Virus record (IMG/VR): IMGVR_UViG_3300020045_010174
Span: 678-64,677 of that record
Source: a virus
Reading direction: 5' to 3' (one strand)
DNA length: 64,000 nucleotides
Under the pieces are notes generated by a model. It was not told where the DNA came from. It saw only the letters and a program-made list of their open reading frames with translations, and did not search any database. Positions within the stretch are counted from its first letter, which is position 1. Every line of letters starts with the position of its first letter. The position numbers and the translations under genes are program-made. Of the stretch, positions 2,806 to 45,543 are shown in pieces.

Positions 2806-2806
2806 T

Positions 2807-22899: not shown

Positions 22900-22912
22900 T
22901 AGAGGTGATTAC

Positions 22913-23119: not shown

Positions 23120-23138
23120 ATTATGGAGTGATAATCAT

Positions 23139-23578: not shown

Positions 23579-23590
23579 GGTGATAATCAT

Positions 23591-23806: not shown

Positions 23807-23817
23807 GGTGATATGAC

Positions 23818-28688: not shown

Positions 28689-28866
28689 GATTGGTAGTGT
28701 ATGGGAACTTCCCAATTGGAATCCTCCCCTTTCATTAATAGTAATTGTTACCAACGTTGATAGAGAATACGTTTCAATTAGATATTTATATGATTCACAA
28801 GGTCATTATTCCGGTCGTGAGGAAATGAATAGGTTTTTAAAATATTATGTGGAGTTGATATATTGA
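28681..28866 (+). CDS. tandem mini-gene family member B4
   Basis: 'MIKIGSVWELP...IVIVTNV...SIRYLY'. Confidence 0.6.
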   Translation: MIKIGSVWELPNWNPPLSLIVIVTNVDREYVSIRYLYDSQGHYSGREEMNRFLKYYVELIY

Positions 28867-29424: not shown

Positions 29425-29628
29425 ATGATTAAGGTGGGGGATTTGTATAGGAAGAGTGGATCCAGATGGACAGATGATAAAGATGATATTGTAGTTATTG
29501 CAGAAGTTTCAGGTGACTGGTTAAGATATCGTTATATTACTTCGGGAGATGATTCCTATCATTCTCATAGTGGACGTTGGTCATTCGAAGGATTTAATAG
29601 AGAATTTACGAAGGTGACATATGATTAG
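29425..29628 (+). CDS. tandem mini-gene family member B5
   Basis: 'MIKVGDLYRK...IVVIAEV...RYRYI...FTKVTYD'. Confidence 0.6.
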   Translation: MIKVGDLYRKSGSRWTDDKDDIVVIAEVSGDWLRYRYITSGDDSYHSHSGRWSFEGFNREFTKVTYD

Positions 29629-29824
29629 GGTTGGAGATATCTATCAAAAGGTTGGGAAAGGTAGGTGGGGTGATGAAGAGAATGATTTAGTGGTCATTGT
29701 ATGGTCCACACCTTTACAAATAAGATATCGTTATATTGATAGGGCATCACATGATCATCAACTAAGTTCTAGCTGGGATCTCAAATCATTCGATAGATGG
29801 TTTAGAGGGGTGAAATGTGATTAA
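29621..29824 (+). CDS. tandem mini-gene family member B6
   Basis: 'MIRVGDIYQK...LVVIVW...RYRYI...FRGVKCD'. Confidence 0.6.
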   Translation: MIRVGDIYQKVGKGRWGDEENDLVVIVWSTPLQIRYRYIDRASHDHQLSSSWDLKSFDRWFRGVKCD

Positions 29825-30017
29825 AATTGGTAGTATCTGGGAGAGAGTATTAACACTCGACAGAAATATACACGTGGGAGATATTGCAATTGTCACGGAT
29901 ATAGTTGGTAATGATATCAAATATCGATTTATGGTACATGAAGGTAATAGACATTTAAATTTCCAAAGATCCCATGAAGAGTTTTTAAATATTTTCAGAG
30001 AGGTGAAGTATGATTGA
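29817..30017 (+). CDS. tandem mini-gene family member B7
   Basis: 'MIKIGSIWERV...IAIVTDI...KYRFM...FREVKYD'. Confidence 0.6.
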   Translation: MIKIGSIWERVLTLDRNIHVGDIAIVTDIVGNDIKYRFMVHEGNRHLNFQRSHEEFLNIFREVKYD

Positions 30018-30207
30018 ACCTGGTAGTGTATGGGAAAGATCGGTTTTTATAGGAGGAATTCCAGCAGGTAGTTTAGTTATAGTTGAGAGGGTTAATAGTA
30101 GAGAGGTTCAATATAGATTTGTAGATGCCGAAGACAACAATCATTCTTATTACAGTAGACATGTTAGCGATTTCCAGAAAAATTTTAAGGAAGTGAAACA
30201 TGTATAA
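30010..30207 (+). CDS. tandem mini-gene family member B8
   Basis: 'MIEPGSVWERS...LVIVERV...QYRFV...FKEVKHV'. Confidence 0.6.
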   Translation: MIEPGSVWERSVFIGGIPAGSLVIVERVNSREVQYRFVDAEDNNHSYYSRHVSDFQKNFKEVKHV

Positions 30208-30388
30208 AGTAGGTGATGTATTAAAACGAGTTGGACCTCTCTGGGATTCGAGATGGTTGGGTGCATTTGTAATAGTAATTTTTATTGATGAAGAATATAT
30301 GTTGTATAGATATCCTTCACATGCTATATCAAAGCATTCTTCTGGTCATGTATCCAAAGAAGACTTTGATTCATTTTCATATCCATAG
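30200..30388 (+). CDS. tandem mini-gene family member B9
   Basis: 'MYKVGDVLKRV...FVIVIFI...LYRYP'. Confidence 0.55.
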   Translation: MYKVGDVLKRVGPLWDSRWLGAFVIVIFIDEEYMLYRYPSHAISKHSSGHVSKEDFDSFSYP

Positions 30389-30398
30389 GATAATATTT

Positions 30399-30608
30399 AT
30401 GACGATTAAAGTTGGTCAAGTATGGCGCCGAGTAGGAGAAGCATGGTCTATATATTATAAAGAAAAACCCGTTGTTATTATACAGGTATCTCGTATCGGA
30501 GTTAAGTATAGATATACAGATCAACATGAACAAGAGCATGTTGATGGTGAAATATTATCATTCAGTAGATTTGAAGATATTTTTAGATTGTGGAAGGATG
30601 TGGATTGA
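30399..30608 (+). CDS. tandem mini-gene family member B10
   Basis: 'MTIKVGQVWRRV...VVIIQV...KYRYT...FRLWKDVD'; internal ATG of the six-frame ORF 30285-30608. Confidence 0.55.
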   Translation: MTIKVGQVWRRVGEAWSIYYKEKPVVIIQVSRIGVKYRYTDQHEQEHVDGEILSFSRFEDIFRLWKDVD

Positions 30609-30817
30609 TGACGGTTGAAGTTGGACAAGTATGGGTGAGATATGGAGATACCTGGCTACCAGATGATCGTGAGAATCCAGTCATTATTATAAGCGCGACT
30701 ATTCTTGGAATTGTATATAGATATTTAGATATGTATGAAGAAGAACATGCTTGTAGTAGTGAGTGGCCAATAGAACAATTTGAAGAATCTTTTAAATTAT
30801 ATAAGGATGTGAAATAA
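30608..30817 (+). CDS. tandem mini-gene family member B11
   Basis: 'MTVEVGQVWVRY...VIIISA...VYRYL...FKLYKDVK'; ATGA overlap with B10. Confidence 0.55.
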   Translation: MTVEVGQVWVRYGDTWLPDDRENPVIIISATILGIVYRYLDMYEEEHACSSEWPIEQFEESFKLYKDVK

Positions 30818-32503: not shown

Positions 32504-32695
32504 ATGGAAATTGGTTCAATTGTAAAAATTAAAGATAATGCTGGGACATATGGAGAAGCACTCGGAGCAATTGGTATATGTACACGTATAGAATATATTG
32601 CAAGAATTAAAACTATTCTAATATATGTAAGGATTCCGGGTAGGTTATCACACACGGGTGTAATGTTACTTGAGACGGAGGTAGACTTAATATGA
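32504..32695 (+). CDS. small protein distantly resembling the tandem mini-gene family
   Basis: 'MEIGSIVKIKD...GAIGICTRIEYI...'. Confidence 0.35.
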   Translation: MEIGSIVKIKDNAGTYGEALGAIGICTRIEYIARIKTILIYVRIPGRLSHTGVMLLETEVDLI

Positions 32696-33585
32696 TAGAT
32701 ACAACTATAGGTAGCGATCCAGAATTCATGATTATAGATTCTAATGGGGAAATATTACCAGCAGTTAAAATTTTATCGGGATGTGATGATTGCAATCCTT
32801 GTGATACATGTAGTAAAACACGCGACGAGGATGCGTGTGTTCGTGGATGTGGTGGGGATTGTGATGTATGTCATATGTGTAGCAGTGAACCAGGAAATTG
32901 CGATTCATGCTATGAATGTCAGGAACCTCTGGAACATTCGGAAGTTGGTATAGATGGGAACAGTACAGTTGGAGAACTTCGACCGATTTATTCATTTGAT
33001 CCTATAATGCATCATGCAGCCATCAAATCATTGATTCGACATATTAATCTTCCAAAAGAATATAAATTATTGGGAGGTACAGTACAATGTGGATTTAAAC
33101 TGGGAGGACATATTCATATAGGTTATAATGAATCTGGTATTGATAATGATCATTTCGCAAAATATCTTTCATACTATTGTGGGATACCCCTCAAGAGAAT
33201 AGAGAATCCAGACGATATTGAATGTCGTGGTAAATACGAGGAGACATATGGATACTACGGTTCTTATCATGATACTGATTATGGTATAGAATTTAGAATG
33301 CCTGCATCATGGTTAGTTGATTCTACCATTGCAAAAGCAGCATTGTGTTTAGCTAAGGTGGTAGCATATGAATATCTCAATGTGGATTCATCAGCTGATG
33401 TTGACTTATCTCATGATGAGTATGTGGAATTACTTGATGCTAGAAACATAGATGATATCATAGAAGAAATAAAAGATATGGAAGAATTTTCTAAATATGC
33501 TAATGAAATAAATCCCCTGCTTACAATGATTGAGAATCATCAAACATGGGATACAGATAAAAACATACGGGAGAACTGGAAATGA
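32692..33585 (+). CDS. Amidoligase_2-family (glutamine-synthetase-like) amidoligase paralog 1, with Cys-rich N-terminal insert
   Basis: 'IGSDPEFMII' N-terminal motif and 'LGGHIHIGY' / 'YGIEFRMPASW' core, shared with the ORFs at 39834 and 42237. A 60-aa insert carries ~16 Cys ('CDDCNPCDTCSK...CGGDCDVCHMCSSEPGNCDSCYECQEP'). Confidence 0.6.
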   Translation: MIDTTIGSDPEFMIIDSNGEILPAVKILSGCDDCNPCDTCSKTRDEDACVRGCGGDCDVCHMCSSEPGNCDSCYECQEPLEHSEVGIDGNSTVGELRPIYSFDPIMHHAAIKSLIRHINLPKEYKLLGGTVQCGFKLGGHIHIGYNESGIDNDHFAKYLSYYCGIPLKRIENPDDIECRGKYEETYGYYGSYHDTDYGIEFRMPASWLVDSTIAKAALCLAKVVAYEYLNVDSSADVDLSHDEYVELLDARNIDDIIEEIKDMEEFSKYANEINPLLTMIENHQTWDTDKNIRENWK

Positions 33586-33893
33586 AACTAAAAAAATTTA
33601 TATTGTATCTGATGGAATGGTTGACCCCCTCCTGTACCGCAGCATACATTGTCTTAACAGATAAGATACAGTGGGGGACATATATGTTTTGGGGATATGC
33701 GGTTAACATCCCCTCATATATCTTGGCATCACTCGCGGGTGCAGCTATCTTTTATTATCTGAATAAATATATATTTAAATCAGATGTAAAAGAAGTAATA
33801 GTAACAGTTGATGGCTCTACTTATACCATGCGTGATGGTGATAATATTAGAGCAGTTAATAATATAGTAATCGTAAAACATAAGGAGGTATAA
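33582..33893 (+). CDS. small TM hypothetical protein
   Basis: Two hydrophobic helices. Confidence 0.4.
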   Translation: MKLKKFILYLMEWLTPSCTAAYIVLTDKIQWGTYMFWGYAVNIPSYILASLAGAAIFYYLNKYIFKSDVKEVIVTVDGSTYTMRDGDNIRAVNNIVIVKHKEV

Positions 33894-34041
33894 GATGGAA
33901 AATTTTATTGAAATTGCACCCCTAACACCGTTTATAGAGCGAGAGGTTTTTGAAGATACAAGACATGTGTTTGCAAAACCCCGGGAAATATTTGCACAAA
34001 CAGATACGACAACAATCACTAAACCAACATGAGGTGAATAC

Positions 34042-34410
34042 ATGACCAAAAAACAAAAAGAAAGGACGTGGAAAAATCCAGAAGAACCTCCACACAACGT
34101 TTATTATTTTATTGATCATCTTGATCCCCAGAAGAGATTGAGAGTGTGGGGAGGACAACACATGAATGATGTAATTGAGTCATTGAAGCCCTCAAATTAT
34201 TTAACCGAGTTTGTTCGGTTCATGAAAGGCTGCGACAGCCTTAGCCGATGTTATCCACTCCATGAAGAATTGGGTCATGTTGACGAGATTCGACTTGAAT
34301 TTTGGTCACGATATCAAACAAAAGTTAAGACAGTAATAAAACCAATGATCAAAAGAATGATAAAGGACGAGATAAAGAAGGATTTGGAGAGGATGAAATT
34401 TTATGAGTGA
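34042..34410 (+). CDS. hypothetical protein (122 aa)
   Basis: ORF with 'gaggtga' SD. Confidence 0.45.
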   Translation: MTKKQKERTWKNPEEPPHNVYYFIDHLDPQKRLRVWGGQHMNDVIESLKPSNYLTEFVRFMKGCDSLSRCYPLHEELGHVDEIRLEFWSRYQTKVKTVIKPMIKRMIKDEIKKDLERMKFYE

Positions 34411-34828
34411 TGAAGTTTTTACTCAAATAATTTTTCCTCCACTCCCCAAAGTAATTTATAATCAAACGCCTTTGGCAAACCAACGGTTTGATATCAATAA
34501 CAAACCAATGAAGTCAGAAATTCCAACGTACAACGTTCCACCAGATAAACCATATTGGTTTGAATTTTATCCCGACAGATCGGATTTTATGTGTAAGTGT
34601 CCTGCATGTAATTTGGTATATTGTTATAGTTCAATGCGACCCGATACGGATCCTGATGCATTGATGAAGACAGTCCTTGCTTTAAAATCGTATTATAATC
34701 AGGAATTTGAATGGTTCTGCCCCAATAAAAAAGATCATGAAGTAATATCATTCAATGATCGAAGGAAGGCGAACGAAGGATACGAGGAATATTCCGAAGA
34801 ATACTGGTCGGAGTTCATGATGAGGTAA
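34403..34828 (+). CDS. 'FTQIIFPP'-tagged Zn-ribbon protein 1 (candidate substrate / precursor of the ligase locus)
   Basis: 'MSDEVFTQIIFPPLPK...' then a variable body with 'CKCPACNLVYCY...FCPNKKDH'. Confidence 0.55.
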   Translation: MSDEVFTQIIFPPLPKVIYNQTPLANQRFDINNKPMKSEIPTYNVPPDKPYWFEFYPDRSDFMCKCPACNLVYCYSSMRPDTDPDALMKTVLALKSYYNQEFEWFCPNKKDHEVISFNDRRKANEGYEEYSEEYWSEFMMR

Positions 34829-34830
34829 GT

Positions 34831-35124
34831 ATGGATAATGTATTTACTCAGATAATATTCCCACCCAAACCAAGACAAGAACTCGTTATAAAATCAAGCG
34901 GTGATAAAGATATAGATTATTGGGTTGTTGCAGAAGAATCGCATAAGGCATTATATGTTCAATGTCCCATCTGCTATACTTCGTTTAGATTGGCAATGGT
35001 TATGAATGAGGCAGCATTGAAAGAATATATAAATAGATATCCTGATATGTATTACAATGCGGCAATCAGAGAATGCCCGGAAAAAGATAAGCATGGACAA
35101 CAAGTCTGGCACACGGTGATATGA
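34831..35124 (+). CDS. 'FTQIIFPP'-tagged Zn-ribbon protein 2
   Basis: 'MDNVFTQIIFPPKPRQ...QCPICYTSF...ECPEKDKH'. Confidence 0.55.
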   Translation: MDNVFTQIIFPPKPRQELVIKSSGDKDIDYWVVAEESHKALYVQCPICYTSFRLAMVMNEAALKEYINRYPDMYYNAAIRECPEKDKHGQQVWHTVI

Positions 35125-35125
35125 A

Positions 35126-35443
35126 ATGGAAACTTTTACTCAGATAATATTTCCACAGAAGAAAAAAGATACTCCATTACTAATGAAACCCGCGGGATCT
35201 ACAGATGGAAAACAATTCATATTTTGGTTTAAGGATGTATTGGATTATAATACTAAGGAAGAAGAATCATTCGTTATGGTAAAATGTCCAGAATGTAATT
35301 TTATCTACGAGTTTATTAAAATAGATCCCAGACAAAAAGAATTGATAAATGAAAATCTCCACACAAATCTATCCTACTATAAAATACGTGCAATAAGCGG
35401 TTGCCCAAGATGTAAAGGAAATTATAATTCGGGGTATGCATGA
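35126..35443 (+). CDS. 'FTQIIFPP'-tagged Zn-ribbon protein 3
   Basis: 'METFTQIIFPQKKKD...KCPECNFIY...GCPRCKG'. Confidence 0.55.
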   Translation: METFTQIIFPQKKKDTPLLMKPAGSTDGKQFIFWFKDVLDYNTKEEESFVMVKCPECNFIYEFIKIDPRQKELINENLHTNLSYYKIRAISGCPRCKGNYNSGYA

Positions 35444-35690
35444 TCATTCAAATCCTGGAAGAGTCAGATCGTTTTCTTGTTCAGGAAATGGAAGATATGG
35501 AATTTCATCTTTTAGAAGAAATAAAATATTCCGATTTAATAACATATCAAAAGTGGCTTAAAGAGCAACTTGAGTTGATAGATAAAATATTTAAATAGGA
35601 GGAATTGTTATTTGGGAAGAATTTATAGGGAAAAGAATATATGTAAAAAGATTTGATACAGATGATACTTACGAGAATCTCAGTATAGAA

Positions 35691-36041
35691 ATGATGACAG
35701 TATTGGAAATAATACCAATCATAAGAAATACTTTGGCAAAAATACTTACGAAAAATAATCTTATCAATTGTATATATCCTTCGGCATACGAGGTTTTAAG
35801 TTCGGAATCTCTTACTGAATCCACGGATGATTGGAATCAATATGTGGGGAAACGTATTTTAGTTTCACAACATGATAGAGAGGAAGATAGAACGTTGGGG
35901 TATCCTATACAAGAGTATCTTGTTGTGGCAACGAAAGGAAAGTATGTCATGTTATATGATGTAAATACCCGTGATGAAGTTTATGGGCATCAGGTAATAT
36001 GGAGAGATACAAACGATTATGATGTATTGGGTACGTTGTGA
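35691..36041 (+). CDS. hypothetical protein
   Basis: ORF; 4-nt gap/overlap to the next. Confidence 0.4.
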   Translation: MMTVLEIIPIIRNTLAKILTKNNLINCIYPSAYEVLSSESLTESTDDWNQYVGKRILVSQHDREEDRTLGYPIQEYLVVATKGKYVMLYDVNTRDEVYGHQVIWRDTNDYDVLGTL

Positions 36042-36440
36042 ATGGTAAATACATATAAAATATTATTCAAGAAGAATGGTATTCGGGTTACTCCCAGTAG
36101 ATTGCGGGGAGCCGATGCTCGCATATTCCAATTACATCTTAAAAGGTTGAGTAAAGGATTTGAAGATAACCACACCGATGTATTGGATAATATAGCTTTA
36201 TTAGTTGCTATAGATGGAGAAGAGCATTATCGAAAAAGAGACAATTTAAAAAAGAAAGAGATATTAACAATAGATGATATGATCATCGACTACGAGCTAA
36301 ATAATATAACTCATATATTAGTCGATGGCATACTCACTAAAGACAAAAATACTCTGCTGGATAATATCTATGTATTAGAATTGTTTAGTGAGAGTATGTA
36401 TCAATCTCCTCAACTCGATGCAAAACTAAGAAAGAGGTGA
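36042..36440 (+). CDS. hypothetical protein
   Basis: ORF. Confidence 0.4.
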   Translation: MVNTYKILFKKNGIRVTPSRLRGADARIFQLHLKRLSKGFEDNHTDVLDNIALLVAIDGEEHYRKRDNLKKKEILTIDDMIIDYELNNITHILVDGILTKDKNTLLDNIYVLELFSESMYQSPQLDAKLRKR

Positions 36441-36526
36441 TATAATGACAGAAGAAGAAGAAAAAGAAGTGAAGGTATTTGTACCCCACGACACTCGGAT
36501 GTTGATATATGATCCCGAATTAACGG

Positions 36527-36892
36527 GTGATACATATGTTTGAAAAAGGAGACGTGGTTAAATATATTGGTGATAGCCAGCGATGGAAAAATAAAGAATT
36601 TACAATAGTAAATGATCCCGTTCAACGTGATCGTAGTGTACTTCATTGTATACGAAATAATATGACATATTTTAGGATATTTACTACAGATCAAGTGGAG
36701 AAAGTAGAATCAATTCCTAAATTTCAAACGGGAACTATTGTTGATGTTAAAACTTTAATTTACAATGATCCAAATAGAATTGGTATTATTAAATTATCAA
36801 ATCATTTGGGATCAATTGTTAGATATCCACTCGGTGGATTCGCTCATAGAGAAGATTATATTCCAAATAGTAGGCTGAGGTTATCAAAATAA
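36527..36892 (+). CDS. tandem-duplicated SH3/KOW-like small-barrel protein (two G-x-V-V/I-x-V repeats)
   Basis: 'FEKGDVVKYIGDS...' and 'FQTGTIVDVKTLIYND...' internal repeat. Confidence 0.35.
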   Translation: MIHMFEKGDVVKYIGDSQRWKNKEFTIVNDPVQRDRSVLHCIRNNMTYFRIFTTDQVEKVESIPKFQTGTIVDVKTLIYNDPNRIGIIKLSNHLGSIVRYPLGGFAHREDYIPNSRLRLSK

Positions 36893-37282
36893 TGGAAATA
36901 AATGTAAAGGATGTTATAGAAACAGTTTCATTATCGAATGGATTTATATTATTTCAAAATGATACTGGATACTATCTGGGAATAGTGTGTGAAAATACGG
37001 GTATCGCAGCCGTTCATGCGATCGATAAAAGAACATATGAGTGTGTAAAAAGACGAGAAGGCAAGAAACAATGATGGATACATTACTTCTATATGCAAAT
37101 TATCAGTATACTATAAAGGTTACTGATGTCCTTGTAGATATGTATGTGAATAATTATCCGCATATAAGTGGATATGGTATATCGGTTATGCTCCCCGATC
37201 ATCATACCAAGAGAGCGGGAATAGCAAAAGGATTATTATCCGATATTCCAAATCATGGAGCTATTATAACAGAGGTAGAATA

Positions 37283-37570
37283 ATGACATTGGATGACTTG
37301 GTATTAGAAATATATACCGATATGAAAAAAGCATTTGCTGATGGTAATGCATTAGTATATGCTAATAAATTGGCGCAAAAAATAATGATAGTAGAAGGTT
37401 CAAGGGAAACAGTAAGTAGAGCAGAAACAACTAGACCAGTGATCTCTCAACCCAGGCCAGTACAACCTGCCGTGGAAGTGAGAGAAGAACTGCGTGAAGT
37501 TCCTAGACCTCCGGCGAGAACAAATACAGCAACTGAGCAAAGAGATAACGTGAGAGTATCACGGGGTTAA
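37283..37570 (+). CDS. hypothetical protein with Pro/Arg-rich tail
   Basis: ORF immediately upstream of the ATP-grasp. Confidence 0.4.
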   Translation: MTLDDLVLEIYTDMKKAFADGNALVYANKLAQKIMIVEGSRETVSRAETTRPVISQPRPVQPAVEVREELREVPRPPARTNTATEQRDNVRVSRG

Positions 37571-37580
37571 GAGGTAGAAT

Positions 37581-38312
37581 ATGCCAGATTTTATATTATA
37601 TCATGAAAATAGTTTAGATACGGGAAAAGCTTTACAGAGAGCACTTGGAATCGAAGGTGGAGAACATATGCCAGATAGGAGATATGATCATCTTATCAGA
37701 TGGGGGAACCGAGAAAAAATCCACTATGCATCACCAAAGACACTTAACAAATCATCGGCGATGGATAATGCATCTAACAAAACAAGAGCGATCGAAGTCA
37801 TGCAGGCGAATGGAATTTCCCATGCACCAATAAAAACAAGGTTCGATGGAGTTCTTCTTCTTGCAAGAAAGTCATCTCATATGCACGGTTCGGGATGTTA
37901 TTTCGTGACATCACAGTATGACTTTGATAATGCCAGAAGAATCGGATGCACATCATTTACCGAGTTTATTCCAACCAAGCGTGAATTCAGAGTTCATGTG
38001 ATCAATGGAGAAGCTGTATTCATATTTGAGAGAGTATGTCCCAGCGAACCAGAGAGTCTCAACATAAGGAATGAGTGGAATGAAGAGAGAAGAACAGTAA
38101 ATGAAGTTCCTTCAACAGTTATTGCAGAAGCAATTAGGGTTGTTGAAGTCATGGGTTTACATTTCGGTGCGGTGGATATCGGGTTCAGTATGAATGATCG
38201 GCCATATGTGTATGAAGTCAATACAGCACCTGGTCTTGTGAATGATGATACCCATATGAAACCATCGTTCGCTGTATATAAGAATGCATTCGCTGCATGG
38301 TTAAGAACATAA
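37581..38312 (+). CDS. RimK-like ATP-grasp ligase (alpha-L-glutamate/peptide ligase family)
   Basis: C-terminal 'GLHFGAVDIGFSMNDRPYVYEVNTAPGL' matches the RimK/ATP-grasp 'G.D.AGVD.......V.EVN.SPG' signature; 'FRVHVINGEAV' is a central beta-strand motif. Confidence 0.7.
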   Translation: MPDFILYHENSLDTGKALQRALGIEGGEHMPDRRYDHLIRWGNREKIHYASPKTLNKSSAMDNASNKTRAIEVMQANGISHAPIKTRFDGVLLLARKSSHMHGSGCYFVTSQYDFDNARRIGCTSFTEFIPTKREFRVHVINGEAVFIFERVCPSEPESLNIRNEWNEERRTVNEVPSTVIAEAIRVVEVMGLHFGAVDIGFSMNDRPYVYEVNTAPGLVNDDTHMKPSFAVYKNAFAAWLRT

Positions 38313-38323
38313 GTTTGAGTATT

Positions 38324-38560
38324 ATGACAGATACATTTACTCAAATAATTTTTCCACCAAAAATAAAACCAATCGAACCCAAGCAATCTAATATAGTTAA
38401 TACGTTAGCAAGTATCTATGAAAATTCTAGTCGTAAATATACCCCCCTACAAGTTTATTGTAGTGAGAAGAGGGGGATGGTTTTACTAATAGGTTGTCTT
38501 AGATGTGAGAAAAGAACTGTTCCACTTGAATCGATATTCACAGTAATGATGGGGTGTTAA
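38324..38560 (+). CDS. 'FTQIIFPP'-tagged small Cys protein 4
   Basis: 'MTDTFTQIIFPPKIKPIEP...YCSEKRG...GCLRCEKR...MMGC'; internal ATG of the six-frame ORF 38297-38560. Confidence 0.5.
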   Translation: MTDTFTQIIFPPKIKPIEPKQSNIVNTLASIYENSSRKYTPLQVYCSEKRGMVLLIGCLRCEKRTVPLESIFTVMMGC

Positions 38561-38561
38561 T

Positions 38562-39071
38562 ATGTCTTTACTTATGATGCATATAAGTACCACGCAAACT
38601 GCATTAGAAACATTATTGCACGTATTTCATTCCCAAATGAATGGTGGATATAAAAATCTATCATTGAGTATTAAACATGTGGATGGCACTAATCAATGGG
38701 TTCGAGGAAATCTTGATACAGTATTTGGAAGTGATATAATATTAGATATGGAATATCATGATCTTGTCATACTTGAACATTACAATGATAGAAGTGCCAC
38801 CTCTACAACGTGGCTCAATGGGAACACGACACTGGCTACGTTGATCGATATGTACAGTGATCAAGAATACTGCATCATGGCAACTCTTGCGTCGGGTGGA
38901 CCGCATGCATATTTCATATTTAAAAATGAACCGATGTCGAGATATAAATTGTTGGGCAATGAAGTTATTTCTTTCTTTGTCCCGAACGGTGCAACACAGG
39001 TATCGATTATGAATAACATCAGCGGAAAATTAACATGTGATAGAGGTCTATCGCATATGATGAAATTATGA
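38562..39071 (+). CDS. hypothetical protein (169 aa) inside the ligase locus
   Basis: ORF; no recognisable motif. Confidence 0.4.
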   Translation: MSLLMMHISTTQTALETLLHVFHSQMNGGYKNLSLSIKHVDGTNQWVRGNLDTVFGSDIILDMEYHDLVILEHYNDRSATSTTWLNGNTTLATLIDMYSDQEYCIMATLASGGPHAYFIFKNEPMSRYKLLGNEVISFFVPNGATQVSIMNNISGKLTCDRGLSHMMKL

Positions 39072-39074
39072 GAG

Positions 39075-39815
39075 GTGAGTATTATTTGCAGATTAGCATT
39101 TATTACAAGTAATAATATAGACAGAAGAATCTTAAATGAACTATTCATCGCCCTGGAGAAATCTATGGGCGGTGATGGAAATGGTATTGGTGGATTTATT
39201 GGAGGACATCCTCTCGTATCTAAATCAACGAAAGCAACGGCAGATAAATTTGTATCTGATATGCAATGGGATAACAACAGATATATATTCCATACCAGAC
39301 GAGCGTCAGTAGGTAGTATTGATGATGATAATTGTCACCCCTTTATATGGGGAAATACAATCACAATGCATAACGGACATATTGATGGAGCCGGAGTTCT
39401 GAAGCTTATGATGCTTGAGAATCTTGATCAGTATGAAGATGATGGGTGGACACTTGAAAAGTTAAGTAATTCCACAGACAGTAATATAATGGCATATTTT
39501 ATCTGGAAGCGAGGATTTGAGATAGTGTCATTATTGTCGTGTGGAACAGTAGTAACTATGTATCCGCATCAGACATTACTGCATGCTGGCAATGCTTTGG
39601 AAGCCATCAGAGTTAATGGTGAATGGATCTTCGCATCCGAATTTCCCGACACTATGGGTATGGCATCAGATCAGTGGCTGGTATTTGAAAAAGGTACCGA
39701 GATAACAGTAAAGAACACAGATGAATATATTATCACCAAAGGATGTTGTTTTGATGGTAAGAAAATTTATCTATTAAAAAAAGAGAGCGAAAGAAAAAAT
39801 AAGAAAAGAAAATAA
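39075..39815 (+). CDS. class-II glutamine amidotransferase-like (Ntn-hydrolase fold) protein 1
   Basis: 'MHNGHIDGAG' (HNG motif) and 'FHTRRASVGS' with an N-proximal Cys ('..SIICRLAFI'). The annotated start is GTG; an in-frame ATT directly before the Cys would make it N-terminal. Confidence 0.45.
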   Translation: MSIICRLAFITSNNIDRRILNELFIALEKSMGGDGNGIGGFIGGHPLVSKSTKATADKFVSDMQWDNNRYIFHTRRASVGSIDDDNCHPFIWGNTITMHNGHIDGAGVLKLMMLENLDQYEDDGWTLEKLSNSTDSNIMAYFIWKRGFEIVSLLSCGTVVTMYPHQTLLHAGNALEAIRVNGEWIFASEFPDTMGMASDQWLVFEKGTEITVKNTDEYIITKGCCFDGKKIYLLKKESERKNKKRK

Positions 39816-39833
39816 AATTATGGAGGTAGCAAT

Positions 39834-41486
39834 ATGAAAGGTAAAATAAAAGGAAATATCCCAACGTCAAATGTTGAATGTCTTTCTCAGAGAGAAAGTA
39901 TGCAGAGTTATATAGGCACTTTTGGTAAATATTTTTCCAGAGTTGGTAACTGGTTAAATAATATTGATGCATCTAGTGCAAGAGATACCGCACTTATATA
40001 CACAAAGGTAAATAAGATGTCAGCATGTGCTTCATGCACCAATGAAACATGTCTTCAAATTCCCGATAAGTGGAAATTTGGTCCAGAGTCCCCGATATGG
40101 GAGCATAGCTTCTTGAATCAAAAAACTCCCGAATTCATGAGAGTAGAATCATCTGTATTTGAGAGAAGACTTTGTGATAAATCCATCATGATAACACTTC
40201 AAACAAATACATATGATAGAGTTATCGCAGAGTTTTGTCCATCCAAAAAAGTATTATTAACAACCGACTGGACCCACGATGAAACAACGATGGAATTTGT
40301 AAGAGAGGTGTTGGATATGATGGCAGATATGGGATTACTTTCAACCCGTTCAAATAAACCCATCAAGCCTAATATCACACTCGGTGCAGATCCAGAATTA
40401 GAATTTGTGGATCAAGATACGAAGATGGTATTACATTGTGGTGATGCTGGAATTCAGGATAGAATTCCAATGAGTCCAGGTTCAAGTACAGGTAGAATCG
40501 GAAAAGATGGATCCGCAGCACAGAGAGAAATAAGACCAGAACCATCCCCCACACCAGAGGGTCTTGTCGAAAATATAGACAAACTCATTGGTGCTGCATT
40601 AGATGAGCAGTGGTCATTGAAGGGAGAAAAATATTCCCTCGGTGGACATATACATATTGGAGGAATAACAGAGTCAAGGGACTTTATTAAGTTGCTTGAT
40701 TATTACCTTGCACCTCTCTCAATATTGAATTCTTCAATGAGATCGGGTTCTTCGTATGGAAAATCCGGCGACTATAGAAAGCAGCCATATGGTCTTGAAT
40801 ATAGAGTTCCACCGGCTGGATGGTTAGCATCCAGAAGATTAGCAACAATTACATTAAAGATAGTTAAGCTTGTTGCTGAGAAACATTATACTGGGGAAGA
40901 TATAGAACTTACAGATGACCTCAATCGTGACCTAACAACACTTGGATTAACTATGGAAGAAGTAGTAACATTCTTCACAGAAATAAAATCTTTCCAGGAA
41001 AATGGTCTTCCAGATAATCTACAGAAAGCATGGGGATATAAAAATCCAATAAAGTTTTCTCTAGAATTTAGAGATGGGTGGAACGAAGATGTTAAAAAAT
41101 ACATCAACGGTCTTGTAATCGAGATGGCTAAAAAGGAAGAATTGGGTGGACGTGTGGTTCTATATGGGCTTGATGCATCGAGGGGAAATGTTTTCTCATT
41201 GGTCATGGCTCATATGAATGGAATAGATATGCCGGAGAACTATGGGTTTATGCCGCCACTAAAACAAGGTGCAGGTATAAATCATGTTGGTATACCATCA
41301 TCCATTAGAAGTAGTCTACCGGAGGCTAAACATATGGCAGAGGTTGTTCTTGAGGTAATCAGAAGAACTATCAACCCGCCCAAACCAAAGAAAAATAAAA
41401 AATCCAAACATGAGGAAGAAGAGGCAGTGGAAGTCGATATACCTACCGGATGGACATACACACAAACCTTATCCAGGAGATCATAA
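39834..41486 (+). CDS. Amidoligase_2-family amidoligase paralog 2 (N-terminal ~190-aa extra domain)
   Basis: 'LGADPELEFV', 'YSLGGHIHIGG', 'YGLEYRVPPAGW'. Confidence 0.6.
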   Translation: MKGKIKGNIPTSNVECLSQRESMQSYIGTFGKYFSRVGNWLNNIDASSARDTALIYTKVNKMSACASCTNETCLQIPDKWKFGPESPIWEHSFLNQKTPEFMRVESSVFERRLCDKSIMITLQTNTYDRVIAEFCPSKKVLLTTDWTHDETTMEFVREVLDMMADMGLLSTRSNKPIKPNITLGADPELEFVDQDTKMVLHCGDAGIQDRIPMSPGSSTGRIGKDGSAAQREIRPEPSPTPEGLVENIDKLIGAALDEQWSLKGEKYSLGGHIHIGGITESRDFIKLLDYYLAPLSILNSSMRSGSSYGKSGDYRKQPYGLEYRVPPAGWLASRRLATITLKIVKLVAEKHYTGEDIELTDDLNRDLTTLGLTMEEVVTFFTEIKSFQENGLPDNLQKAWGYKNPIKFSLEFRDGWNEDVKKYINGLVIEMAKKEELGGRVVLYGLDASRGNVFSLVMAHMNGIDMPENYGFMPPLKQGAGINHVGIPSSIRSSLPEAKHMAEVVLEVIRRTINPPKPKKNKKSKHEEEEAVEVDIPTGWTYTQTLSRRS

Positions 41487-42226
41487 TGTGTGGGATTTCT
41501 GGTATCATCCCACTTTCAAATGATGTAAGTAAAGAAACCACGTTAGAAGTAACGAAATTTCTTTTATTAGAAAATGAAAGTAGGGGAAGAGATGCCACAG
41601 GAATAGCAACGATGAATATTGCAGATAAGAAAGTTTTAATCTGCAAGCAAGCCGAAACAGCGAAGGAATTTATTACTCACCTCACAACGGAACATATCTG
41701 GGGGCCAGTAATATGTCATAATAGAGCAAAGACGAGAGGTGAACCAGAAGATCCAGAGAATAATCATCCTATGTTTGGACCAAAATTTTGTATGGTTCAT
41801 AACGGAATGGTTCATTCTATGAAAGAATTACCGGAATATAAACTGAAAGGTAAGTGTGATACTGAGGTTCTTCTATCATATTTTGAAGTAAAGGGTATAA
41901 AGCAAGCTATCCCCGAAATTGATGGTAGTGCAGCAGTAGCAATATTTAGCCCCCTCGATCGTATGTTTTATCTTTATAGACATACAAGCCCGTTATCGAT
42001 AGCATACTTCCCGGGTAAGGCAATCGTATTTTCAAGTTTGGATTCCCCACTCAAAAAAGTAGGAGCCATGCTCGGTGTAGAAAAGACACTAGGTCTTTTT
42101 AACAATTACCACCTTGTGGATGTGGAGGAGGGACAGTTAATAACAATGGATCTATCGACAAACAATATATCCCTCGATATGATAAAAATTGAATACAAGG
42201 CAGGCAATTGGTGTAATGTAAAATAG
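41486..42226 (+). CDS. class-II (Ntn) glutamine amidotransferase domain protein 2
   Basis: Begins 'MCGISGII' (catalytic N-terminal Cys). 'RGRDATGIA' and 'VHNGMVHS' motifs follow. Its ATG overlaps the stop of 39834-41486. Confidence 0.65.
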   Translation: MCGISGIIPLSNDVSKETTLEVTKFLLLENESRGRDATGIATMNIADKKVLICKQAETAKEFITHLTTEHIWGPVICHNRAKTRGEPEDPENNHPMFGPKFCMVHNGMVHSMKELPEYKLKGKCDTEVLLSYFEVKGIKQAIPEIDGSAAVAIFSPLDRMFYLYRHTSPLSIAYFPGKAIVFSSLDSPLKKVGAMLGVEKTLGLFNNYHLVDVEEGQLITMDLSTNNISLDMIKIEYKAGNWCNVK

Positions 42227-42236
42227 AGGTGATAGT

Positions 42237-43547
42237 ATGAAAAAAGTTATAAGAAGAAATGAACTTCTTGTAAAAAATGCTGCATCTGATGAATGTATCG
42301 ATGAGTATATAGATATACTCAAACCATACTTCAACAAAATCACGCATCATTATACTACAAATCACAATCTAAATCACGATTGTATTTTAGTATACTCGTA
42401 TTTCCCCAATGAAATATGTTGTGATAATTGTAGGCAAAAACCAATCACAATAAATATTTCTCAGTTGGATTCATCTATTCCTATCAAAAAGGGATTTGGT
42501 GACAATAGATTCCGAGATGAGCCGTGCTCGAGACTTTTACGTATTCGATATGGTTCATTAACTTTTGGATATTATTGTGTTAGAAACAATATGATGTTGG
42601 CAGCAGACTTTGCACATGTGGATGGAAATCAACCTCATCTAAAGGTCATACTTGAAACTTTATATGATACGGATATTCTCATACACATGGAAGATAAAAG
42701 AGGACAATGCGAAATCACTCTCGGAACAGATCCAGAAATGGAAGCTATGGTGGATGGAAAAATTATTGCGGGTAATTGTTTGCCAAGTATTCGTAGCAAC
42801 GATAAGGCATATATATCTCATGATGGTGCAAGAAATCAACGGGAACTTAGACCAGATCCATCGAAATCACCAGAAGAATTAGTTGAAAATATTCGAGACC
42901 TAATCCGCATATCTTCCTTCTTCGGCGAAGAACTGATTATTGCGGGGAATAATTATTCCCTTGGTGGACATATACACATTGGGGGAGCTTATCCAAGCGC
43001 TGAAATTATAGAAGTGTTGGATTACTTCTTATATCCATTAAACGCATTATCTGGTAAAATAAGAAAAGATAGTCAGTATGGGAAAATGGGTGATTTTAGA
43101 TATCAGCCGCATGGTTTTGAATATCGTACCCCTCCCGCCGCATGGCTATTAACACCGGAATTGGCCTTAAAAACTCTACAGCTTACAAAAGTTTCGATAG
43201 AAACTCTGTTAAATACTGGAGAAGTTATTGTCTCGGAGGAAAATACCTGGTCTAATTATTTAGAAGATCTTCGTCAATTTCCTATATGTACCGAGGAATG
43301 GATCGAAAAATATAAGAATGAATTCAAATGGGCATCCGATAATTTAAATAAACCTCTCAGTGAAACTTGGGGTGTAGATATTCCAAAAGAATTCCGAGCC
43401 CAGAAAAAATACCAATATAGTCCTGATGTCGAAGTATCACGTGTTAATCCAGTGAGGGTAGTTCAATTATGTTCGGATGATGAAGATGAAAATGGTGTAG
43501 AACCTTTAATAAATACTGTCTCATCTCCAGATGTGGATGCATTATGA
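42237..43547 (+). CDS. Amidoligase_2-family amidoligase paralog 3 (N-terminal ~160-aa extra domain)
   Basis: 'LGTDPEMEAMV', 'YSLGGHIHIGG', 'HGFEYRTPPAAW'. Confidence 0.6.
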   Translation: MKKVIRRNELLVKNAASDECIDEYIDILKPYFNKITHHYTTNHNLNHDCILVYSYFPNEICCDNCRQKPITINISQLDSSIPIKKGFGDNRFRDEPCSRLLRIRYGSLTFGYYCVRNNMMLAADFAHVDGNQPHLKVILETLYDTDILIHMEDKRGQCEITLGTDPEMEAMVDGKIIAGNCLPSIRSNDKAYISHDGARNQRELRPDPSKSPEELVENIRDLIRISSFFGEELIIAGNNYSLGGHIHIGGAYPSAEIIEVLDYFLYPLNALSGKIRKDSQYGKMGDFRYQPHGFEYRTPPAAWLLTPELALKTLQLTKVSIETLLNTGEVIVSEENTWSNYLEDLRQFPICTEEWIEKYKNEFKWASDNLNKPLSETWGVDIPKEFRAQKKYQYSPDVEVSRVNPVRVVQLCSDDEDENGVEPLINTVSSPDVDAL

Positions 43548-43915
43548 AACATAAATCAATACGGTACTTTTTGTCGAAGACTATCTCAGATAGATCTTCT
43601 TCATTTTCTATAGAGAATAGAAATGGAGGAAAATGGTTATGCTATATGGAGAGGCATTCTATAATTGCAGATATGCAAATCAGCAAAAAAAGCTTCAATT
43701 CCTTGATGCGATTCACAAGTGGAGTCACCTGTCAAGAATGTATACATGATGATTGTGATGATTTAGCAGATGAAGTTGAGGAAGCTTTGATAGATATGGT
43801 ATCAAAACATAATAAGAAGCATGGTAGAAAAATGCATACATCTTTCGTTAATGAGCCTCAACCTAAAAGAGAAATGAATCCTTTCGTTGTACAAATATTT
43901 GATCCATCATTATGA
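43544..43915 (+). CDS. hypothetical Cys-containing protein
   Basis: 'CQECIHDDCDD'. Confidence 0.4.
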   Translation: MKHKSIRYFLSKTISDRSSSFSIENRNGGKWLCYMERHSIIADMQISKKSFNSLMRFTSGVTCQECIHDDCDDLADEVEEALIDMVSKHNKKHGRKMHTSFVNEPQPKREMNPFVVQIFDPSL

Positions 43916-44820: not shown

Positions 44821-45015
44821 ATGACATTAAAGGTAGGGGATATTTTACATACCCGATCCCATATAAATAATTTTTATGTGGGTATATTTCTGGGAAAAAT
44901 ACGTGATTATTATACGGTGCGATACTTTGTCGAGGGTGATACAACCGGACATTCGACTACCAGATACACCTCTTTAAATGAAATGTATGGCTCATGGGAG
45001 GATTACGAGATATGA
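44821..45015 (+). CDS. tandem mini-gene family member C1
   Basis: 'MTLKVGDILHT...YYTVRYF...'; SD 'aaggaggtaaa'. Confidence 0.55.
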   Translation: MTLKVGDILHTRSHINNFYVGIFLGKIRDYYTVRYFVEGDTTGHSTTRYTSLNEMYGSWEDYEI

Positions 45016-45200
45016 AACCAGGAACCATCTTATTTACCAAACCGAGTATAAATTATTTATATGCGGCAATATATGAAGGTATAAATAATGATTATGGATA
45101 CTACGCAGTGAGATATACCGGTGGAATATCCCCTATACCTCAGCATACTGTTGTTCATTATAAAACATTAACTGAGTTATTTGAAGTATGGGGGAGATAA
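45012..45200 (+). CDS. tandem mini-gene family member C2
   Basis: 'MKPGTILFTKP...YYAVRYT...'; ATGA overlap. Confidence 0.55.
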   Translation: MKPGTILFTKPSINYLYAAIYEGINNDYGYYAVRYTGGISPIPQHTVVHYKTLTELFEVWGR

Positions 45201-45202
45201 TT

Positions 45203-45373
45203 ATGGAGTTAGGTGATATATTAACTTATCGAACAGCTTTACTTATAGGAGTTTATGCTGGTATACGAAGAGGTGATAAAAAGCACATTGTTAGGTGGAT
45301 TAATAAGGATCATCATTCAGATGCTTCATATGAAGATATGGATGAAATATTTTTCTTCTGGGAAAAAATATGA
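45203..45373 (+). CDS. tandem mini-gene family member C3
   Basis: 'MELGDILTYR...HIVRWI...'. Confidence 0.5.
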   Translation: MELGDILTYRTALLIGVYAGIRRGDKKHIVRWINKDHHSDASYEDMDEIFFFWEKI

Positions 45374-45543
45374 CAATTAAAATAGGGGATGTAATTACAC
45401 ATACAAGTCATCTGGGTATCGTGGGTATATACATCGGTAAAGTTAATGGTTTATTACAGGTGAGGACTATTGATACAAGCACTCATAAATCATATGTTTA
45501 TGAGGAAAAAGATCAACTTGAGTATTTTTGGAGGCATTTTTAA
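45370..45543 (+). CDS. tandem mini-gene family member C4 (57 aa, not in ORF track)
   Basis: 'MTIKIGDVITH...LLQVRTI...LEYFWRHF'; ATGA overlap with C3. Confidence 0.5.
   Translation: MTIKIGDVITHTSHLGIVGIYIGKVNGLLQVRTIDTSTHKSYVYEEKDQLEYFWRHF

Follow-up and report, generated by a model that had tools for sequence, protein, structure and literature searches.

The combination of a GS/GCL-fold ligase, a class-II glutamine amidotransferase (GAT-II) and a RimK-like ATP-grasp was predicted as a phage module by Iyer, Abhiman, Burroughs & Aravind (2009), and family PF14395 is named after the phiEco32-like phage module in that work. As relayed by papers that cite it, the predicted role was cell-wall modification or a secondary metabolite. 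A comparable gene set is grouped together in a LUZ24-like phage and the module also occurs in phiEco32-like phages, but our literature search found no experimental function for the phage multi-amidoligase module.

The window analysed here is a 64,000-nt stretch of DNA from an uncultivated tailed virus whose host is probably archaeal, with an association to Methanoperedens (methane-oxidising archaea). The locus at 32692-43547 is well supported as a phiEco32/LUZ24-type viral multi-amidoligase module. The evidence supports equally well its expansion to three PF14395 ligases of GS/GCL/PafA fold, one RimK-like ATP-grasp, two apparently active class-II (Ntn) proteins and one degenerate Ntn-fold protein, with a lineage-specific family of Zn-ribbon-like small proteins inside the module. 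The ORFs, motifs and four FTQIIFP-tagged proteins listed in the earlier note were all found on the + strand at the coordinates first given. That note did not recognise the arrangement as a described system; the enzyme combination is known from LUZ24-like phages and from the 2009 prediction as cited, and the novelty is the FTQIIFP-tag family. Eight loci bear the tag: the window and L007, L008, L009, L011, L014, L015 and L016. The features of the block are as follows.

32692..33585, + strand: A1, GS/GCL-fold carboxylate-amine ligase, 297 aa (Pfam PF14395, E 6e-34)
33582..33893, + strand: small putative membrane protein, 103 aa, conserved beside A1 (orthologs in L007, L008, L009)
34042..34410, + strand: p122, 122 aa, always immediately 5' of the first tagged gene (orthologs in L007, L011)
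34403..34828, + strand: T1, tagged Zn-ribbon-like protein, 141 aa, MSDEV-FTQIIFPPLPK..., with CKCPxC...CPxxxxH
34831..35124, + strand: T2, tagged Zn-ribbon-like protein, 97 aa, MDNV-FTQIIFPPKPR...
35126..35443, + strand: T3, tagged Zn-ribbon-like protein, 105 aa, MET-FTQIIFPQKKK..., with CPEC...CPRC
35691..37570, + strand: six small conserved ORFs (116, 132, 118, 60, 70 and 95 aa), from T3 to the ATP-grasp
37581..38312, + strand: RimK-like ATP-grasp ligase, 243 aa (PHROG 2599, E 7e-34)
38324..38560, + strand: T4, tagged small protein, 78 aa, MTDT-FTQIIFPPKIKP..., with C..CxxC..GC at the C-terminus
38562..39071, + strand: U169, cryptic third Ntn/GAT-II-fold protein, 169 aa
39075..39815, + strand: G1, class-II (Ntn) amidotransferase/amidohydrolase with a weak EgtC-like match (GATase_6 1.2e-4, GATase_4 2.3e-4, sub-threshold)
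39834..41486, + strand: A2, GS/GCL-fold ligase, 550 aa, extended at both termini (Pfam PF14395, E 6e-24)
41486..42226, + strand: G2, stand-alone class-II glutamine amidotransferase domain, 246 aa, MCGISGII... (GATase_6 5.5e-11, GATase_7 3e-9)
42237..43547, + strand: A3, GS/GCL-fold ligase, 436 aa, whose N-terminal ~155 aa form a beta-rich domain
43544..43915, + strand: p123, conserved, 123 aa, 3' of A3 in all syntenic loci (orthologs in L007, L008, L011)

Searches of Pfam, PHROG and NCBIfam bore out the classes of GS-like ligases, RimK-like ATP-grasp and class-II/Ntn proteins. The ligases had been called Amidoligase_2, a label that needs changing because none of the three matched PF12224 at E<=0.1 in Pfam; profile scores against PF14395 COOH-NH2_lig (117.8 bits for A1, 85.2 for A2 and 88.0 for A3; cutoff 25) assign them to that family, the phiEco32-like type 2. 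Catalytic motifs were intact in A1 (GSDPEF, KLGGHIHIG), A2 (GADPEL, YSLGGHIHIG) and A3 (GTDPEM, YSLGGHIHIG). A1 has a Cys-rich insert downstream of the GSDPEF strand and orthologs in L007, L008, L009, L011 and L014, while A2 orthologs share 40-63% identity. The N-terminal domain of A3 had no recognisable match apart from matches to the catalytic domain, and the closest structural relatives of A3 are enzymes acting on amino acids, peptides or proteins.

Both GAT-II proteins reported earlier are present, but that count missed the cryptic U169. G1 matched NCBIfam EgtC at a sub-threshold 6.7e-9; its orthologs start MCRLAY and keep Cys1, and in the window the Cys follows GTG plus 4 codons, or an ATT start. 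The G2 matches to GATase_6 and GATase_7 both exceed the Pfam cutoff, and it also matched the GlmS glutaminase domain 1xff (E 1.6e-5). Its true start at 41486 overlaps the A2 stop as TAATG with GGAG upstream, and Cys1 is kept. The HNG motif is kept in G1, and HNG and DTEV in G2. U169, between T4 (the fourth tagged gene) and G1, lacks the catalytic N-terminal Cys nucleophile and is a probable pseudo-glutaminase or adaptor.

The remaining ORFs are conserved. Orthologs of the 103-aa membrane protein lie directly 3' of A1 in L007, L008 and L009 (45-51% identity), and the protein had no family match. The conservation of p122 (72% identity to L007, 66% to L011) is among the highest in the block, behind the ATP-grasp and G2; its stop overlaps the T1 start, and it had no match in Pfam, PHROG, NCBIfam or PDB. 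The six-ORF stretch has syntenic orthologs in L007 and partial ones in L008, L009 and L011. The four of these six that were scanned had no family match, nor did p123.

Decoration of DNA bases had also been suggested for this locus. Under such a scheme amino acids would be put on hydroxymethyl- or carboxyl-bearing bases of DNA or RNA, with the Zn-ribbon proteins as nucleic-acid-binding specificity or regulatory factors; nucleic-acid binding is common among Zn ribbons. Lee et al. (2021) reported viral contigs with Pfam amidoligase and glutamine amidotransferase genes beside thymidine-hypermodification genes. Genes for dCMP deaminase, NrdD and a weakly MazG-like protein are present in the window, and in the relative L007 a thymidylate-synthase-family gene lies 3' of PolB. 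However, the nucleotide genes are >10 kb from the locus, past PolB, and no 5-hmdU DNA kinase, aGPT-pyrophosphorylase or thymidylate-synthase-like hydroxymethylase was matched among the ~58 window ORFs in Pfam. Together with the amino acid-, peptide- or protein-using relatives of A3, this makes base hypermodification improbable.

The tag peptide is written FTQIIFPPKPKP. The degenerate DNA pattern TTYACNCARATHATHTTYCC occurs four times in the window, at the four tagged N-termini and nowhere else, a count reached in 0/100 shuffles. The T4 start is most likely 38324 (MTDTFTQ...) rather than 38297, because the database protein P0115 (on a 74,458-nt contig) has 78 aa, the same as the ORF from 38324. 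The invariant F, I and F of the tag are each encoded by 2-3 synonymous codons and Pro by all 4 codons, a synonymous variation that shows the peptide to be under selection; no DNA conservation was found upstream of the start codons of the tagged genes. The tag is real and under peptide-level selection, and it is conserved at homologous loci; the earlier note had named a lack of such conservation as grounds for refutation. That note placed the tag on divergent Zn-ribbon bodies. The shared tag stands, but the bodies are not independent scaffolds, as T1-T3 are mutual paralogs with a CxxC knuckle common to T4. A profile of the T family gave a weak, non-significant match to the LysW chain 5k2m_E (E 0.022).

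Among 5.8 billion proteins the tag family had 49 members, every one from a single viral clade, with the consensus M-x(0-5)-F-x-[QE]-I-[IV]-F-P-P-K-P-K in the first ~15 residues followed by a Zn-ribbon-like body; the tag F is at residue 2-6 in 46/49. The family was found on contigs of this clade alone, and the module is present on each contig long enough to inspect. Genomes carry 2 to 4 tagged genes with a nearly constant enzyme set. In 8/8 tag-bearing loci the ATP-grasp stop is adjoined or overlapped by a T4-type gene, at ATP-grasp identities down to 41%. One more divergent locus retains a degenerate-tag protein at the T4 position, and in another distant module the ATP-grasp is followed directly by double Zn-ribbon proteins that carry no tag. 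Tag positions -1 and +2 vary in parallel across the T1-T4 paralogs by genome lineage: one lineage has [TVIL]-F-T and the second [YF]-F-[RKES], with bodies orthologous between the two. From these parallel changes we infer a common partner for T1-T4, although gene conversion could be an alternative source.

Our preferred reading, with a probability of roughly 0.4, is a multi-amidoligase module in which the T proteins, as substrates or carriers, dock through the tag on a partner that they have in common, plausibly the ligases. As a docking motif, the N-terminal peptide would recruit every paralog of a given genome to one and the same protein, with one of the ligases the most plausible choice. The ATP-grasp would be the leading candidate because the T4-type gene comes directly after its gene. 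At the expense of ATP, the ligases would convert carboxylates to acyl-phosphates, to which Glu/Gln-type residues or ammonia would be attached, and the stand-alone GAT-II proteins would provide glutamine-derived ammonia or trim off gamma-glutamyl groups in an EgtC-like manner. From these docking, ligase and GAT-II steps, the small proteins would be modified substrates, or LysW/Pup-like carriers for building a Glu/Gln-derived moiety. The purpose might be to change how these viral Zn-ribbon proteins act, or to label targets of the host or the virus.

The ATP-grasp carries ...YVYEVNTAPGL. Its Pfam RimK score of 18.2 bits is under the cutoff of 21, and its NCBIfam matches (GRASP_SAV_5884 1.8e-9, rimK_fam 1e-8, MptN 3e-8) are all far under theirs. 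In microviridin biosynthesis, ATP-grasp ligases bind a leader motif, and a similar logic had been proposed here. The tag would then be a true leader, and the ATP-grasp, possibly along with the GS-fold ligases, would cross-link side chains of the core through ester or amide bonds to give a mini-protein that is stabilised or bioactive. A conserved N-terminal motif ahead of a variable remainder recalls leader and core, a precursor-like gene adjoins the ATP-grasp gene, the top NCBIfam match (E 1.8e-9) is a ribosomal peptide maturase family, and the PDB sequence matches include MdnC 5ig9 and CdnC 7mgv. Yet the scores against RiPP-maturase families are 25-37 bits against cutoffs of 350-475, and the RimK/MptN matches are equally good. 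The cores are Cys-knuckle Zn-ribbon-like domains without repeated Thr/Ser...Asp/Glu motifs, neither a leader peptidase nor an exporter was identified beside the genes, and known graspetide pathways have no place for the three GS-fold ligases or for the three Ntn-fold proteins. The likeness is therefore one of resemblance, and a graspetide-type pathway is improbable.

A less remote alternative, which we hold to be possible though unlikely, is that the tag is unrelated to the ligases. It would be a short linear motif for capsid or internal-protein targeting, or for docking Zn-ribbon regulators onto a host factor, while the substrate of the module would be a small molecule, a cofactor or a component of the envelope. 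The sub-threshold ATP-grasp matches include MptN and CofF, methanogen-type archaeal cofactor ligases, and the 2009 prediction, as cited, fits such a target. The tag family was absent from LUZ24-like phages and from 77 distant IMG/VR and 14 genome loci with PF14395 ligases (30/77 of the IMG/VR loci also carry an ATP-grasp), so the module clearly works without it elsewhere. L015 and L016 retain T1-T3, and no A1 was called in the upstream sequence examined, which for L015 was part of that region. Synteny within the clade spans everything between the HD protein and PolB, and adjacency is perhaps just inherited; because the tag-bearing genomes form one syntenic clade, conserved adjacency lends weak support to a functional link. 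Against this alternative, tight coupling between the T4-type gene and the ATP-grasp stop holds at all tag-bearing loci, the most diverged included, and a small Cys-rich protein is retained at that position even where the tag is lost. The locus is also placed among early/replication genes, on the strand opposite to portal and terminase, and by inspection the tag fits neither the PIP-box Qxx[ILM]xx[FY][FY] nor the bacterial clamp motif QL[SD]LF.

Bacteriophage T4 internal proteins are otherwise diverse and share a conserved N-terminal capsid-targeting sequence. The ~10-residue conserved N-terminal peptide, diverse small phage proteins and tandem genes are alike, but no link to a scaffold or a protease was seen here, the block is early/replication and one paralog is coupled to the ATP-grasp gene. 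Graspetides share a conserved hydrophobic N-terminal motif on small ribosomal products beside an ATP-grasp, with weak sequence matches to MvdC, MvdD, MdnC and CdnC, but differ in the scores and cores given above and have no counterpart for the extra GS-fold ligases and GATases.

In pupylation, Dop deamidates the Gln of Pup to Glu and GS-fold PafA then ligates it. The tagged proteins likewise are small with a conserved, unstructured-looking tail bearing a Q/E position, and the GAT-II proteins make glutamine-amide chemistry available. The Pup reactive residue is in a C-terminal GGQ/GGE, whereas the Q/E here is inside an N-terminal motif; a link to the proteasome is missing, and the deamidase candidates are Ntn-fold rather than Dop-like. 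For the small Zn-ribbon carrier LysW (Thermus, archaeal lysine/arginine biosynthesis), the ligating enzyme is LysX, a RimK-type ATP-grasp. In both systems a small Zn-ribbon gene adjoins a RimK-family ATP-grasp gene, and the functional element would be the flexible tail of the small protein. The LysW tail is the C-terminal EDWGE, in contrast to the N-terminal tail here, no LysZ/Y/J/K-type enzymes are present, and the LysW pathway has neither GS-fold ligases nor Ntn proteins.

The phiEco32/LUZ24-like module likewise joins a PF14395 ligase, a class-II GATase and a RimK-like ATP-grasp (~29% identity between the ATP-grasp here and that of LUZ24-like phages) in a tailed-virus early region. The locus here differs in its three PF14395 paralogs without PF12224 Amidoligase_2 or gamma-glutamyl cyclotransferase, in two stand-alone GAT-II proteins and a degenerate third in place of one long GATase, and in its probably archaeal host. 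It also differs in the tagged Zn-ribbon family that LUZ24-like phages lack, whose Zn-binding members may be the long-sought targets of these amino-acid-joining phage enzymes.

The ORFs at 32692–43547 form a tight run on a single strand, in agreement with the earlier note.

Genes of the ligase locus, with window coordinates
32692–33585, + strand: ligase A1, with GxDPE and GGHIHIG motifs (PF14395, E 6e-34, 117.8 bits)
34403–34828, + strand: T1, tagged small protein
34831–35124, + strand: T2, tagged small protein
35126–35443, + strand: T3, tagged small protein
37581–38312, + strand: RimK-like ATP-grasp (PHROG 2599, E 7e-34)
38324–38560, + strand: T4, tagged small protein
38562–39071: U169, a 169-aa ORF
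39075–39815, + strand: G1, Ntn protein, Pfam sub-threshold, weakly EgtC-like, HNG kept
39834–41486, + strand: ligase A2, with GxDPE and GGHIHIG motifs (PF14395, E 6e-24, 85.2 bits)
start 41486, + strand: G2, Ntn protein beginning MCGISG, its ATG overlapping the A2 stop as TAATG
42237–43547, + strand: ligase A3, with GxDPE and GGHIHIG motifs (PF14395, E 8e-25, 88.0 bits)

All three ligase paralogs scored above the 25-bit gathering threshold of PF14395 (COOH-NH2_lig, "Phage phiEco32-like COOH.NH2 ligase-type 2"), which is their correct family. They had been labeled Amidoligase_2 (PF12224), a family that none of the three matched at E ≤ 0.1 and that is a separate gene in LUZ24-like phages. The paralogs had intact catalytic motifs and the GS/GCL-type catalytic fold with conserved metal, ATP, and carboxylate residues, the A3 fold being PafA/Dop-like. 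Here and at every syntenic locus they were accompanied by a class-II GATase and an ATP-grasp. The 150-aa ORF at 59723–60175, which has a GADPEF motif resembling the first strand of the ligases, was rejected as a fourth ligase; the profile comparison gave an hhalign probability of 31% over 16 columns, so the motif is probably a chance match or a remnant.

The ATP-grasp protein belongs to the wider RimK-like group through PHROG 2599 only. It missed the cutoffs of the curated RimK families (Pfam RimK, 18.2 bits vs 21; NCBIfam TIGR00768, 34.9 vs 143; MptN, 33 vs 350), and every NCBIfam match to RimK, MptN, CofF, or RiPP maturases was sub-threshold. The Mg-ATP-binding E-x-N motif at its C-terminus (...YVYEVNTAPGL) was kept in orthologs. 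G2 was above the cutoff in both GATase_6 and GATase_7, had the GlmS glutaminase domain as its PDB match, and carried MCGISG, HNRAKT, VHNG, and DTEV. The features of class-II (Ntn) glutamine amidotransferases, namely an N-terminal catalytic Cys after Met removal, an oxyanion N-G, and Gln-binding R/T and D, were present. G1 could be placed with G2 by its ortholog motifs (MCRLAY at the start, HTRRAS, HNG, and DS) despite sub-threshold Pfam scores. No ATG precedes the catalytic Cys of G1 in the window (39075–39090), where translation would begin at a GTG with a 4-residue propeptide or at a rare ATT, unlike the plain MCRLAY start of its orthologs.

U169 had no sequence-family match in Pfam, PHROG, or NCBIfam and was rare, a set of 1.84 billion proteins yielding nine cluster representatives. 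A novel fold was ruled out, as the fold is Ntn/GAT-II. The protein lacked a conserved N-terminal nucleophile and did not show the full feature set of class-II glutamine amidotransferases; it is probably a pseudo-glutaminase or adaptor. With U169 as an Ntn-fold protein without a nucleophile, the order of genes in the core block is thus ATP-grasp, T4, pseudo-GAT, GAT, ligase, GAT, ligase.

The four small proteins T1–T4 share an N-terminal peptide (the tag), whose family consensus is M-x(0-5)-F-x-[QE]-I-[IV]-F-P-P-K-P-K; T4 begins M-T-D-T-FTQIIFPPKIKP. The degenerate pattern TTYACNCARATHATHTTYCC occurred four times in the 64 kb, exclusively at the N-termini of T1–T4, which agrees with the FTQIIFPP tag originally reported, and 0 of 100 shuffles reached four occurrences. 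A profile built from 17 members placed 49 proteins of 68–141 aa in the tag family within a collection of 5.8 billion proteins. F-x-[QE]-I-[IV]-F was present in 49/49 with F, I, and F invariant, P-P-K-P-K was nearly invariant, and the tag F fell at residues 2–6 in 46 of the 49. Several synonymous codons were used for invariant tag residues, including all four for Pro, and no conserved DNA was found upstream of the starts of the tagged genes; because of this, we conclude from the sequences that selection on the tag acts at the peptide level. A DNA or regulatory element was ruled out, as upstream conservation was lacking and variation was confined to synonymous third positions. By inspection, the tag also did not fit the patterns of a PCNA PIP-box or a bacterial clamp-binding motif.

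Behind the tag, T1–T3 are paralogs with the pattern CPxC...CPxxxxH/CPxC, T4 has the pattern C...CxxC...GC, and a CxxC knuckle is common to all four. Judged by these Cys patterns only, the T proteins are putative Zn ribbons; all their matches to Pfam Zn-ribbon models were sub-threshold. The C-terminus of T4 is ...G-x-G-C in one lineage and often, though not always, ...GC-x-G-[ED] in the other. The variable positions of the tag followed genome lineage rather than paralog and were the same across T1–T4, with [TVIL]-F-T-[QE] in the lineage of the window and [YF]-F-[RKES]-[QE] in the other. Parallel evolution of this kind among the paralogs points to a common binding partner, or else to gene conversion. 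A second conserved linear motif, [RK][FY]DI[NDH]N[KRN]P[MI], follows the tag at a distance of about 20 residues; one lineage has it in T1 (34487–34513 in the window), the other in T3 (the T3-type proteins of contigs L009, L014, and L015).

The 5.8-billion-protein collection contained 75 homologs of A3, and we compared the locus across contigs L007, L008, L009, L010, L011, L014, L015, and L016. The shared gene order was HD protein, A1, membrane protein, p122, tagged genes, small ORFs, ATP-grasp, tagged T4, U169, G1, A2, G2, A3, p123, Cas4-like nuclease, and PolB, where p122 lies upstream of T1 and p123 (43544–43915) follows A3. Protein identity between the window and its syntenic relatives ranged from 77% down to about 40%. 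The earlier note had named a lack of tag conservation in homologous loci as grounds for refuting its proposal; two to four tagged genes were present in every syntenic relative. Gene adjacency was strict within this clade, with the T4-type gene abutting or overlapping the stop of the ATP-grasp gene at each of the eight loci that bear the tag, the window among them. The more divergent L010 had a 125-aa Cys-rich protein with a degenerate tag, MTANQFSEHILILEKE, after the ATP-grasp, and the distant module on L012 had untagged double Zn-ribbon proteins at that place. HNH/NUMOD-type homing endonuclease ORFs were found between module genes in relatives (L010, 8602–9153, minus strand; L011, 5133–5756; L014, 8429–8905 and 10755–11204) and not in the window, and L011 had an extra unannotated ORF between module genes (8756–9190).

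Outside the clade, LUZ24-like phages lacked the tag, as did 14 distant loci in genomes and 77 in viruses. Those 77 ligase-bearing viral loci included an ATP-grasp homolog in 30 and a G2-like GATase in 21, and their shared N-termini were those of ordinary paralog families, with none tag-like. The locus was not found in 50,697 GenBank phages (megablast; tblastn of A2), where the ATP-grasp alone had relatives at ~29% identity. A scan of IMG/VR with the single protein A2 gave no match, and IMG/VR and the species-representative genomes held distant relatives of the locus only. Five IMG/VR matches to the exact tag pattern were discarded as irrelevant, since all of them fell in the interior of longer frames, in an unrelated ORF, and none was near a start.

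We propose that the small proteins are brought by their tag to a common partner, which is most plausibly a ligase. In this scheme, the ligases would attach Glu/Gln-type residues or ammonia by acyl-phosphate chemistry, the GAT-II proteins would supply ammonia or trim gamma-glutamyl groups, and the small tagged proteins would be substrates or LysW/Pup-like carriers. We put the probability of this mechanism as a whole at roughly 0.4. A more specific version, which we hold tentatively, is that the tagged Zn-ribbon proteins are dedicated ribosomal acceptors or carriers of a viral conjugation or peptide-assembly system, with FxQIIFPPKPK recruiting them to PafA/GCL-fold and RimK-like ligases that, with Ntn amidotransferases, would build or attach a Glu/Gln-derived moiety. 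The main rival, also possible, separates the tagged proteins from the ligases: the tag could be a host-factor or capsid-targeting motif, and the adjacency could be inherited synteny. The capsid-targeting sequence of the phage T4 type is bound by the scaffold and removed by the prohead protease; the tag's resemblance to it is formal only, both being N-terminal peptides common to small proteins encoded in tandem. p122 (34042–34410) is a candidate tag partner; it always sat directly ahead of the first tagged gene, had no homolog that could be detected beyond the clade, and at 72% and 66% to relatives was among the best conserved of the block after the ATP-grasp and G2.

A graspetide-type reading seems improbable to us. 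The ATP-grasp was below the maturase cutoffs (TIGR04187, 37.2 vs 350; MvdC, 25.6 vs 425; MvdD, 24.6 vs 475). As precursors the T proteins gave a mixed picture, with a leader-like, conserved N-terminus and with Cys-knuckle cores lacking the typical Thr/Ser-Asp/Glu repeats. Decoration of DNA bases, the other hypothesis offered initially, is also unlikely. Lee et al. (2021) reported amidoligase and amidotransferase genes adjoining thymidine-hypermodification genes. Such clusters (Lee et al. 2018/2021) have a 5-hmdU DNA kinase, an aGPT-pyrophosphorylase, and a dUMP hydroxymethylase or TET/JBP. Pfam scans of ~58 ORFs of the window, including a minority of those shorter than ~100 aa, gave no match to a thymidylate-synthase-like hydroxymethylase, kinase, or pyrophosphorylase, and no hypermodification genes were found in that set; the contig extends ~10 kb beyond the window. 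The original interpretation is supported in part, and the observation behind it is confirmed.

The window belongs to a tailed virus, with portal and terminase on the minus strand. The plus strand encodes a family-B DNA polymerase (48631–50943), D5-like primase-helicase (58072–59601), RNA ligase, Cas4-like nuclease, ERCC4/XPF-type nuclease with HhH (60525–61145), dCMP deaminase, and NrdD; its replication/repair set (ERCC4/XPF, D5-like, PolB) is archaeal- or eukaryotic-virus-like. Multiheme c-type cytochromes (Cytochrome_C7/C3 matches at 17869–18993 and 19438–19893) lie beside several small membrane or secreted proteins, an unusual viral cargo that fits a host with extracellular electron transfer such as Methanoperedens. 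L015, a close relative of the locus, came from a bin named Methanoperedens, and this bin name together with the viral gene content, including the cytochromes, makes an archaeal Methanoperedens-type host plausible. A host search through species-representative genomes returned only distant bacterial (pro)phage-like relatives. Sigma-70 promoter and terminator counts equaled those of shuffled sequence, the method being ill-suited to a likely archaeal virus. Tandem arrays of 60–75 aa paralogs (M[IV]K[VI]G.[IV]W...RY[RF]...) flank the locus on both sides (22796–24024, 28111–28866, 29425–30817, and 44821–45543), and L010 carries a different small family of 66-aa proteins as eight tandem copies (1724–3385). 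Two tRNA genes, Thr-GGT and Leu-CAA, were called (17735–17828 and 22817–22899), the 94 nt of tRNA-Thr possibly indicating an intron. Other cargo included a papain-family cysteine protease (7972–8781), a signal-peptidase S26-like protein (20867–21505), DUF488 (5855–6355), and a CxxCxxCC metal-binding protein (7037–7510).

Sets of GS-like amidoligase, GAT-II, and ATP-grasp genes occur in many phages, including LUZ24-like phages isolated against Pseudomonas aeruginosa, and have been annotated since 2009 with no demonstrated role in the searchable literature. This clade has what is missing from the model phages: a small protein family confined to it, whose N-terminal peptide is under strong selection and one of whose members is coupled to the ATP-grasp gene. 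As candidate substrates, carriers, or adaptors, the tagged proteins are concrete enough to turn a vague prediction into a simple experiment, and we consider the locus of moderately high interest because it provides testable candidate substrates for a widespread phage enzyme module. If the link between tag and ligases is real, archaeal viruses would possess a new type of ribosomal-protein-directed ligation system; should it prove false, the tag would remain a newly recognized conserved short motif, and its partner, whether host factor or capsid component, would merit a search. Were the tagged proteins acceptors or carriers, they would be the first substrates for the phage amidoligase module and LysW/Pup-like logic would have been invented in archaeal viruses.

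Compared with those two systems, the locus shows likenesses and differences. As with LysW, a small putative Zn-ribbon protein, T4, directly follows a RimK-like ATP-grasp in eight loci including the window, but T4 has no counterpart of the C-terminal acidic EDWGE tail at which LysW is attached. The PafA/Dop-like fold of A3 recalls the Pup system, whereas Pup is small and disordered with a C-terminal GGQ/GGE, and no tagged protein ends in GGQ/GGE. The gene combination, whose arrangement the earlier note did not recognize as a described system, has been described before: LUZ24-like phages carry together COOH.NH2 ligase, amidoligase, GATase, ATP-grasp, and gamma-glutamyl cyclotransferase, a set listed in their genome papers. 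As relayed in later papers, Iyer et al. (2009) predicted cell-wall modification, superinfection exclusion, or secondary-metabolite synthesis for it, and our literature search found no experimental function for the phage module. The tagged family is the foremost novelty here; the tripling of the PF14395 ligases, the cryptic third Ntn protein, and the probable archaeal host are new as well.
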